From NCBI GenBank assembly GCA_003557825.1, contig PWNM01000038.1:1-35651 (forward strand): a stretch of 35,651 nucleotides of DNA, given 5' to 3'. The notes under the pieces are model-generated. The model was given only the letters and a program-made list of their open reading frames with translations. It had not been told where the DNA came from and ran no database searches. The DNA comes from Candidatus Hydrogenedentota bacterium (lineage in GTDB: Bacteria; Hydrogenedentota; Hydrogenedentia; Hydrogenedentales; SLHB01). A program made the translations under genes and the position numbers. Within the stretch, counting starts at the first letter, position 1; the number at the start of each line of letters is the position of its first letter. Shown here piece after piece: positions 24,175-25,181 of this stretch.

Positions 24175-25181
24175 ACGCACACCTATCCGGCATCTTTGTT
24201 CCCAACATCGTTCCCTACGATGCACAGGGGCGTATTCACAAAGACGAACTGCGGCGCATCATCCGCTGGCTGGGCGACAAGGGCGTCACCGGATTTTATC
24301 CCAACGGCAGTATGGGCGAGTTTATCCGCCTGAGTTACGAAGAGCGCAAGCAAGTCGTCAAAATCGTCAGCGAGGAGGCCGACGGCCGTCCCGTCCTTGC
24401 CGGTGCGGCCGAGCCCAACGTCGATCTGGTCCTCGATATGTGCGCCCACTGTGCCGACCTCGGCTGCCGTGCGGTTTCCATCACCGGTCCTTACTACTAC
24501 AAGCTAACGCAGGAGAGCATTGAGGCGTATTTCCGCGAACTTGCCGCCAAGTCGCCTATCGACATTGTCATTTACAACATTCCCGCCTTTGCTAACGAGA
24601 TCAGTATTCCCGTGCTCAAGCGCCTCGCCCTCGATTGTCCCCGCATCGTTGGAACCAAAGACACCTCCCGCGACATGCCCCGCTACTTGCGGGTCTTGCA
24701 TGAAATCAAATCCCAGCGCCCGGACTTTTCCGTCCTCATCGGCTGGGAGGAATTACTCTGCGACGCCCTCTTCATGGGCGGAGACGGCGGCACACTCTCC
24801 AGTGCCGGAGTCGTCCCGGAAGTGATCATGAAGATTTACCATGCCGCCCGCAAGGGTGACTGGGAGAGTGCGAAACACGGGCAGTTTAAGCTCCTCGATC
24901 TGTTCGCCCTCATGGTCAATGCCCCCAACTTCCCCGAAGGCTTTCGCGCCGGTTATGAACTGCGCGGCTTCCATCCCGGAAAGGCCCGCTTCCCGCTCTC
25001 CGATTCGGAGCGCGAGCAAATGACCAGCATTCGTTCCCGCATCGCCTGCGTCCTCGCCGAATGCGGTTTCTCTGAAGCCGCCCACGCCTGTGTTTCCAAG
25101 CATCCCCGCCCCGATGCGATGCGTGCGGAGGTCGAGGAAATCGTGCGCCGGGTCATGGCCTCGCTGCAAACCCCGCGCTAA
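24171..25181 (+). CDS. DHDPS/NAL-family class I aldolase (probable 2-keto-3-deoxy-L-fuconate aldolase) with C-terminal BMC encapsulation-peptide-like helix
   Basis: NGSMGEF, GPYY, IYNIP and VGTKDTS (Schiff-base Lys); extra tail PRPDAMRAEVEEIVRRVMASL. Confidence 0.88.
   Translation: MNAHLSGIFVPNIVPYDAQGRIHKDELRRIIRWLGDKGVTGFYPNGSMGEFIRLSYEERKQVVKIVSEEADGRPVLAGAAEPNVDLVLDMCAHCADLGCRAVSITGPYYYKLTQESIEAYFRELAAKSPIDIVIYNIPAFANEISIPVLKRLALDCPRIVGTKDTSRDMPRYLRVLHEIKSQRPDFSVLIGWEELLCDALFMGGDGGTLSSAGVVPEVIMKIYHAARKGDWESAKHGQFKLLDLFALMVNAPNFPEGFRAGYELRGFHPGKARFPLSDSEREQMTSIRSRIACVLAECGFSEAAHACVSKHPRPDAMRAEVEEIVRRVMASLQTPR

Follow-up and report, generated by a model that had tools for sequence, protein, structure and literature searches.

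A class I aldolase with a conserved C-terminal helix lies beside a shell protein gene

We analysed a stretch of 35,651 nucleotides (nt), the whole of contig PWNM01000038.1 from the Candidatus Hydrogenedentota assembly GCA_003557825.1, hereafter called the window (contig C126 of genome bin G000, which is 80% complete and comprises 646 contigs). A putative L-fucose oxidation operon in the window includes a gene for a 336-aa aldolase, P0001 (translated from window 24171-25181 (+)), which carries a C-terminal extension and is followed by a gene for a tandem bacterial microcompartment (BMC) domain shell protein, BMC-T (Table 1). Upstream of the aldolase gene, its strand carries five genes whose ends overlap or nearly touch, and exactly 3 nt (ccc) separate the aldolase stop codon (25179-25181) from the BMC-T ATG at 25185, as an earlier first-pass annotation of this DNA had recorded. 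We consider it likely that the extension is an encapsulation peptide on an L-2-keto-3-deoxyfuconate (L-KDF) aldolase, and that the aldolase and the BMC-T form a satellite module linking the oxidative fucose route to a PVM-type microcompartment.

Residues 5-289 of P0001 match the Pfam family DHDPS (PF00701; E 6e-52). Across an alignment of 62 homologs the GSMGE segment (residues 46-50), Y135, and K163 are unchanged, and K163 lines up with the "KD" of a solved 2-keto-3-deoxygluconate (KDG) aldolase. We take K163 to be the Schiff-base lysine, Y135 the catalytic tyrosine, and GSMGE the GxxGE motif of the superfamily. With profile, lysine, tyrosine, and GxxGE motif all found, P0001 is, as judged from its sequence, a class I (Schiff-base) aldolase of the DHDPS/NAL family; it is probably tetrameric. 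It is not DapA proper (131.6 bits against the NCBIfam model TIGR00674, cut-off 206), and it scores under every equivalog cut-off of the NCBIfam models for NanA, KdgD, and archaeal KDG aldolase. The closest solved structures are KDG and YagE-type 2-keto-3-deoxy-acid aldolases. Its genomic context, namely clustering with genes for an L-fucose dehydrogenase, a lactonase, and a dehydratase, makes cleavage of L-KDF to pyruvate and L-lactaldehyde the most likely reaction. The Schiff-base aldolase of route 1 of fucose oxidation splits L-KDF into these same products and is clustered with the same three kinds of genes (PMC11199699); P0001 is likened to it by description, and the accessible portions of that paper describe neither a microcompartment link nor a terminal extension for that enzyme.

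The C terminus of P0001 reads ...SKHPRPD-A-MRAEVEEIVRRVMASL-QTPR. The first-pass annotation had placed a linker and a helix here, after the DHDPS fold, and both its coordinates and its sequence are correct, save for the trivial omission of A316 between the two. Its start, 25083, falls on the H305 codon; S309-D315, the linker, corresponds to 25095-25115, M317-L332 to 25119-25166, and the helix core V321-L332 to 25131-25166. AlphaFold2, run on the 62-sequence alignment (mean predicted local distance difference test (pLDDT) 90.6), predicts helices at residues 278-297 and 301-306, an unstructured segment at 307-313, and a helix at 314-333.

To describe how the tail is conserved, we used 170 sequences, consisting of the best 120 database homologs and 50 locus-derived sequences, down to ~51% identity. 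The extension is present in all of the best 120 (75-100% identity, 331-367 aa), which, where named, belong to Verrucomicrobiota, Opitutales, Chthoniobacterales, or Kiritimatiellia. The 9-residue core V/I-E/D-x-I-V-R-x-V-[MLVI] is shared by all but three of the 170 sequences, and position 5 is valine in each of these 167. From a conserved CGF motif to this core, the spacer spans 16 to 65 residues (median 21) without sequence conservation, and 3-25 residues (median 5) lie downstream of the core. Encapsulation peptides, as defined by Kinney et al. and Aussignargues et al. (PMC4594438), are short (~15-20 aa) terminal helices with an amphipathic residue pattern, joined to the functional domain by a poorly conserved linker, that are present with microcompartments and absent without shell genes, and that suffice to bring a foreign protein to shells or bind a shell protein. 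A short terminal helix is predicted at residues 314-333 of P0001, with three residues after it, and the variable spacer next to the kept core is a linker of the kind described.

Table 1. Features of the fucose operon, the aldolase with its tail, and flanking genes in the window
Feature	Coordinates	Strand	Basis
GH29 alpha-L-fucosidase, upstream L-fucose supply	448..1755	+	Pfam Alpha_L_fucos, E 2.4e-81
RraA-like / class II pyruvate-aldolase-family protein, first operon gene, start codon uncertain	20261..20962	+	Pfam RraA-like, E 8.3e-27
Small N-terminal (SAF-like) piece of a split UxaA/GarD-type sugar-acid dehydratase, 102 aa	20967..21275	+	NCBIfam galactarate dehydratase, model positions 3-80, E 2.5e-8
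Large UxaA/GarD-type dehydratase piece, 402 aa, putative L-fuconate dehydratase	21272..22480	+	Pfam GD_AH_C (E 6.6e-79) and GD_AH_second; substrate from context
L-fucose dehydrogenase (short-chain dehydrogenase/reductase)	22477..23283	+	NCBIfam FucosDh equivalog, 346.4 bits (cut-off 300)
Amidohydrolase_2 lactonase, putative L-fuconolactonase	23317..24174	+	Pfam Amidohydro_2, E 9.6e-47; NCBIfam L-fucono-1,5-lactonase, 107 bits (below cut-off 400)
DHDPS/NAL-family class I aldolase, catalytic body, residues 1-307	24171..25091	+	Pfam DHDPS; putative L-KDF aldolase
Poorly conserved linker, residues 308-313	25092..25109	+	AlphaFold2, 307-313 without secondary structure; block 311-320 pLDDT 69
Predicted amphipathic helix, residues 314-333, putative encapsulation peptide	25110..25169	+	AlphaFold2, conservation, likeness to EutC
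Hydrophilic terminal fragment TPR (three residues) and stop codon	25170..25181	+	Stop codon 25179-25181
Tandem BMC-domain shell protein (BMC-T, CcmO-like), 210 aa	25185..25817	+	Two PF00936 stretches, 104.5 bits in total
GH95 alpha-L-fucosidase, start codon uncertain	26258..28672	+	Pfam Glyco_hydro_95_cat, E 1.1e-167

The tail resembles peptides on microcompartment enzymes

The tail segment EVEEIVRRVMASL aligns with QIEEIVRSVMASM at the N terminus of Escherichia coli K-12 EutC, the small subunit of ethanolamine ammonia-lyase, with 9 of 13 residues identical (EEIVR-VMAS). EutC's first 19 residues target GFP to ethanolamine-utilization (EUT) shells (PMC4594438). EutC and P0001 have in common a short amphipathic helix, predicted in P0001, a variable linker, and a role, putative in P0001, as an aldehyde-generating signature enzyme. 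The EutC peptide is experimentally sufficient for targeting (PMC4594438). The two differ in build: EutC belongs to a B12-dependent lyase of another microcompartment type and bears its peptide N-terminally on a linker of 36-91 residues, whereas the P0001 tail is C-terminal, sits on a class I aldolase, and has a much shorter unstructured linker (307-313 in the AlphaFold2 model). The class II aldolase of PVM microcompartments likewise has a C-terminal helix, of ~17 residues, produces lactaldehyde, and belongs to the same type of organelle (PMC4594438), but it differs in fold and mechanism (metal-dependent class II as against Schiff-base class I), acts on a phosphorylated ketose rather than a 2-keto-3-deoxy acid, and has its gene in the main locus, not in a satellite.

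We then compared the main PVM loci of six aldolase-carrying genomes (L051-L056; gene identities by Pfam). Terminal helices similar to the tail are found at the N termini of all six PduL-type phosphotransacylases (PTACs) and all six acylating aldehyde dehydrogenases (AldDHs), and at the C termini of five of the six class II aldolases. When 484 open reading frames (ORFs) were searched with a profile of the aldolase tail, PTAC N termini took the top 3 places and 5 of the top 8, with weak E-values (0.041 to 5.9). A strict hydrophobic-spacing pattern, which was composed after the peptides had been seen and is descriptive only, has three sites in 53,562 six-frame residues, and the tail is the sole one in a coding frame. 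Within the window, a hidden Markov model (HMM) of the tail matches only its own tail (E 1.7e-6; next ORF, E 5.4), and the RraA-like protein has no terminal tail by the same profile. The aldolase is thus the sole tail-bearing ORF of the window, and, since the HMM finds no other, only the putative aldehyde-generating aldolase is tagged, as had been proposed earlier.

One further helix of this kind was seen at the N terminus of a zinc-dependent alcohol dehydrogenase encoded beside the main PVM locus of G007 (L051, 2497-3717 (-)), with the shared pattern IVxxVMAS. By sequence, this protein is a candidate for an encapsulated NADH-recycling enzyme.

The tail co-occurs with shell genes across genomes

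Tail-bearing aldolases were found in 54 genomes other than the window's. All 54 encode PF03319 (BMC-P) proteins, mostly in three copies as in PVM loci, and 53 encode PF00936 (BMC-H/T) proteins. Among 401 genomes sampled evenly from the phylum Verrucomicrobiota, to which G007 belongs, 85 have PF00936. Eleven genomes of this sample have an aldolase homolog at E <= 1e-45; eight of the eleven homologs align through the tail, and all eight tail carriers fall within the 85. The corresponding probability, ~0.21^8 if genomes were independent, is overstated, since relatives are not independent. The nearest tail-less homolog (G422; 53% identity, 300 aa) comes from a genome with 0 matches to PF00936 and PF03319. 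Presence with microcompartments and absence without shell genes is therefore also observed, on a small negative set (n = 1) and with two distant tail-less homologs in shell-bearing genomes. The testable sequence features and the co-occurrence with shell genes together support the earlier suggestion that the tail is of the type found on BMC cargo.

A search of representative proteins, which carry no genomic context, returned full-length tail-less relatives at <=47% identity and one tail-bearing representative at 54%. One tail-less DHDPS homolog (P0243, a 400-aa representative, 46% identical) lacks the C-terminal helix and has an 85-residue N-terminal extension. Residues 9-40 of P0243 are weakly like the N terminus of the PVM class II aldolase (12/33 identical, AKLTPxAxD in common, E 0.097), and from this likeness the extension may be another way of attaching the DHDPS family to microcompartments.

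The aldolase and BMC-T genes form a separable pair that in relatives is distal from the main locus

The two domains of the BMC-T differ in their match to PF00936: the N-terminal one is degenerate (25.1 bits, 25206-25385) and the C-terminal one canonical (86.3 bits, 25554-25781). The nearest NCBIfam models are CcmO-like tandem shell proteins, which cover residues 19-209. Within window 25185-25550, which includes the degenerate domain, the inter-domain segment has a motif, PN..N..YGGR[DE] followed by P.D, that is kept in 24/24 orthologs.

We scanned one genome per species and obtained 41 close aldolase loci. BMC-T lies directly downstream in 29 of these and is missing from nine; two loci are too short to judge (L010 and L016) and one holds a truncated copy (L032). 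Adjacency was therefore found in 29/38 assessable loci, and in 5/10 loci added by whole-genome searches, i.e., in 34/48 overall. In 23 of the 28 listed cases, -8 to +8 nt separate the aldolase stop from the BMC-T start. In the remaining 14 of the 48 tail-bearing loci, BMC-T is not adjacent, and all their genomes have shell genes. Hence a comparison of homologs with and without BMC neighbours, which had been put forward as a check, ties the tail to a microcompartment in the genome (54/54 with PF03319) but not to an adjacent shell gene (34/48).

Eight carriers (G003, G034-G038, G314, and G648) have only the three BMC-domain matches of their main locus and no tandem gene, so the tail is retained without this BMC-T. 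The 7.2-Mb genome G618 has, on one contig (C3), the tail-bearing aldolase at 1.20 Mb, the tandem BMC-T at 3.95 Mb, and the main locus at 0.20 Mb; with three separate sites, the aldolase/BMC-T pair can be uncoupled. The truncated copy L032 (716-1651) is a second aldolase in the genome of L031, 79% identical over residues 3-300; it ends prematurely in unrelated sequence, has neither the helix nor a downstream BMC-T, and looks like a broken duplicate.

These data bear on a different role for the tail, in which it would not be a general encapsulation signal but would bind the co-translated BMC-T specifically and tether the aldolase to this one tile, at a pore for substrate channelling; without other shell genes, the pair could make a shell-free scaffold of sheets or tubes. 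The close spacing and frequent adjacency of the two genes agree with such a tether, as does the presence of only this one shell gene in the window's bin. However, the tail-bearing loci without an adjacent BMC-T, all in genomes with shell genes, and the eight carriers without a tandem gene argue against it, and the tail motif resembles peptides on core enzymes of the main locus. The bin, moreover, has a completeness of just 80%, and the contig's membership in it is uncertain. A complex prediction with three BMC-T copies and tail residues 298-336 (score 0.01, mark 0.32) gave no verdict and counts neither for nor against binding. We regard the tether as unlikely.

The earlier reading of the shell-gene context holds in part: a shell gene does adjoin the aldolase, but a single tandem BMC-T is unable to make a shell alone, and relatives encode the complete PVM shell and core at another, distant site of the genome. 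In G598, the module at 3.51 Mb and the main PVM locus at 0.95 Mb are 2.57 Mb apart on one 4.49-Mb contig; in G007, they are on contigs C15 and C43. One or more shell genes, accompanied by enzymes or not, distal from the main BMC-H/BMC-P locus are what defines a satellite locus (Sutter et al. 2021), and this is the arrangement in relatives, while no main locus was found in the window's 80%-complete bin. Satellite EUT modules (EutA/B/C with an EutL-type BMC-T; HO, SPU3, and SPU6) are likewise distal loci that combine a signature enzyme with one BMC-T (PMC8217296); they differ from the aldolase/BMC-T pair in enzyme, substrate, BMC-T type, and host organelle, which here would be of the PVM type.

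A probable satellite module for the oxidative fucose route

We favour the satellite-module reading because the tail has the sequence-level properties of an encapsulation peptide, sits on the enzyme expected to release lactaldehyde, and belongs to a pair that resembles the EUT modules. The operon would encode an oxidative, non-phosphorylating pathway from L-fucose via fuconolactone, L-fuconate, and L-KDF to pyruvate and L-lactaldehyde, with P0001 at the last step. From the sequence features, conservation, gene order, and genome-level co-occurrence described above, we infer that the last ~29 residues of P0001, i.e., the variable linker and the conserved amphipathic helix, would, through a binding partner, recruit the aldolase into a PVM-type microcompartment. 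The toxic lactaldehyde would then be released within the shell and handled by the core enzymes, namely the CoA-acylating AldDH, the PduL-type PTAC, and an NADH-recycling dehydrogenase. Confinement of the intermediate lactaldehyde is a presumed role of PVM microcompartments (PMC4207490 and PMC8857213). The dedicated BMC-T would probably join the same shell and might provide a pore for the six-carbon keto-acid substrate and pyruvate. Such a two-gene satellite would add a further signature enzyme to the organelle, besides the class II fuculose/rhamnulose-phosphate aldolase already known.

Several observations weigh against this interpretation. First, the tail is not exceptionally amphipathic. A helical wheel places V321, I324, V325, V328, M329, and L332 on one face (80-220 degrees), but the best hydrophobic moment, 0.58, ranks 22nd among 322 windows of P0001 and is reached by 900 of 5000 tail shuffles. 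As this moment is non-significant, we draw support for the tail from its conservation, its context, and its likeness to known peptides, and not from the helical wheel. Second, the EutC alignment (BLOSUM62 local score 46, a value that 1 of 5000 tail shuffles reaches) was picked after the resemblance had been noticed, and even the remainder of EutC (256 residues) gives a best local score of 35. A comparison with peptide profiles, also suggested at the outset, was divided: the aldolase-tail profile ranks PTAC N termini first, if weakly, but a profile of the six AldDH peptides, which is narrow and of low power, does not place the tail in its top 15 in the six-frame window. Third, tail absence tracks shell absence imperfectly. 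The two tail-less homologs from shell-bearing genomes are G470 (46% identity) and G347 (38%), and G422 is the only close tail-less homolog from a shell-free genome that was found. A tree of 56 aldolase cores, with the truncated L032 left out, places G422 in a basal polytomy with the tail-bearing L046 and L047, a position that does not separate loss from primary absence. Fourth, the RraA-like protein, of the class II pyruvate aldolase / oxaloacetate decarboxylase family, is a second aldolase-family product of the operon, and the assignment of L-KDF cleavage to P0001 rests on context. Fifth, block 321-330 of the AlphaFold2 helix has a pLDDT of 90, which could mean that the helix is modelled packed on the enzyme. 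Finally, profile searches of the 80%-complete bin found no BMC-P, no other BMC-domain gene, no PduL-type PTAC, and no acylating AldDH.

The confident AlphaFold2 helix fits a further alternative, that the helix serves this aldolase clade as a built-in structural or regulatory part, such as an oligomer contact or an active-site lid, and that its co-occurrence with shells reflects shared Verrucomicrobiota ancestry. Residues 290-307 beside the tail, with invariant C293 and C307, are clade-specific too. Furthermore, the carriers come from related lineages, except for this bin and a bin titled Dongiaceae, so that the co-occurrence counts are not independent. A docked element would not be expected to tolerate linkers that vary between 16 and 65 residues, though. 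The near-match to the EutC targeting peptide and the helices of the same type that these genomes have on their PTAC, AldDH, and class II aldolase count against this explanation. Shells in 85/401 sampled genomes against 8/8 tail carriers also speak against it, and we judge it rather improbable. That the resemblance arose by chance, on a functionless extension, would accord with the ordinary hydrophobic moment and with how common short amphipathic helices are. The core, however, is retained in homologs down to ~51% overall identity while the flanking linker drifts, and we consider chance extremely improbable.

Verrucomicrobiota and Planctomycetota break down algal polysaccharides rich in fucose and rhamnose, and PVM microcompartments are considered key to this process; so far, they have been tied only to the phosphorylating pathway via the class II aldolase. 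The accessible text of two BMC catalogs, an encapsulation-peptide review, and two genomic surveys (PMC8217296, PMC4207490, PMC8857213, PMC6620236, and PMC4594438) names this class II enzyme only. Our literature search found no paper linking microcompartments with DHDPS-family enzymes or with the oxidative fucose pathway, and the consulted main text of PMC8217296 does not mention the aldolase/BMC-T module; the supplementary locus diagrams of the two BMC catalogs may already show the satellite. If the satellite-module reading is right, a second, oxidative fucose route would feed the same organelle in about a tenth of the shell-bearing Verrucomicrobiota sampled (8/85), and a class I aldolase would join the list of signature enzymes. 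Nature would also offer, in this compact pair, an extension module of the "enzyme + shell tile" kind. That the tail is nearly identical to the EutC peptide would further suggest that targeting helices can be exchanged between types of microcompartment, a useful property for engineering.

Origin of the contig and possible transfer of the module

The 134 other genomes of the bin's phylum-level group (135 in all) contain no close homolog of the aldolase, the best being 35% identical and tail-less, and none of the 54 other carriers belongs to this group. In the bin's own family, 23 of 53 genomes have three BMC-P genes each. In composition the contig is a mild outlier: its tetranucleotide profile is the 7th most deviant of the 91 contigs of >=10 kb in the bin, and its GC content is 54.5% against a mean of 56.6%. 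The homologs of the GH29 protein, sought in order to place the contig, were uninformative (best <=66% identical, from mixed phyla). The contig may thus be mis-binned, or the module may have been horizontally transferred. In either case, the missing main locus in the window's bin says little.

A second aldolase-tail and BMC-T pair outside the usual lineages was seen at L019 (10001-11625), on a 90-kb contig of the bin titled Dongiaceae (Pseudomonadota). In the tree, the L019 aldolase falls inside the verrucomicrobial sequences, which makes this locus another candidate for mis-binning or transfer.

A bolder proposal is that the tailed aldolase and the BMC-T are a portable two-gene cassette that moves horizontally between phyla and retrofits any PVM-type shell for the oxidative fucose route, with the tail admitting the enzyme and the BMC-T serving as a pore for the keto-acid and pyruvate. 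The proposal builds on the filing of this bin in a phylum other than that of 52 of the 54 further carriers and on the bins titled Kiritimatiellia and Dongiaceae, and we put it forward tentatively, as something that may well prove wrong. If true, the substrate range of microcompartments would evolve by the gain of "signature enzyme + tile" modules and not of whole loci.

Neighbouring genes

Outside the operon, the rest of the contig carries the GH95 and GH29 fucosidase genes together with other glycan-degrading genes. A 151-aa ORF between BMC-T and GH95 (25842-26297) matches nothing in Pfam or NCBIfam and lacks a counterpart in all 43 related loci, and on these grounds is probably not a gene. 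A promoter and terminator scan of 18900-26600 gave nothing above shuffles. Parts of the operon are shared with relatives: the RraA-like gene is syntenic in L007, L024, and L031, and the split of the dehydratase into two pieces with a 4-nt overlap (window 20967-22480) is kept in these three loci and in L039.

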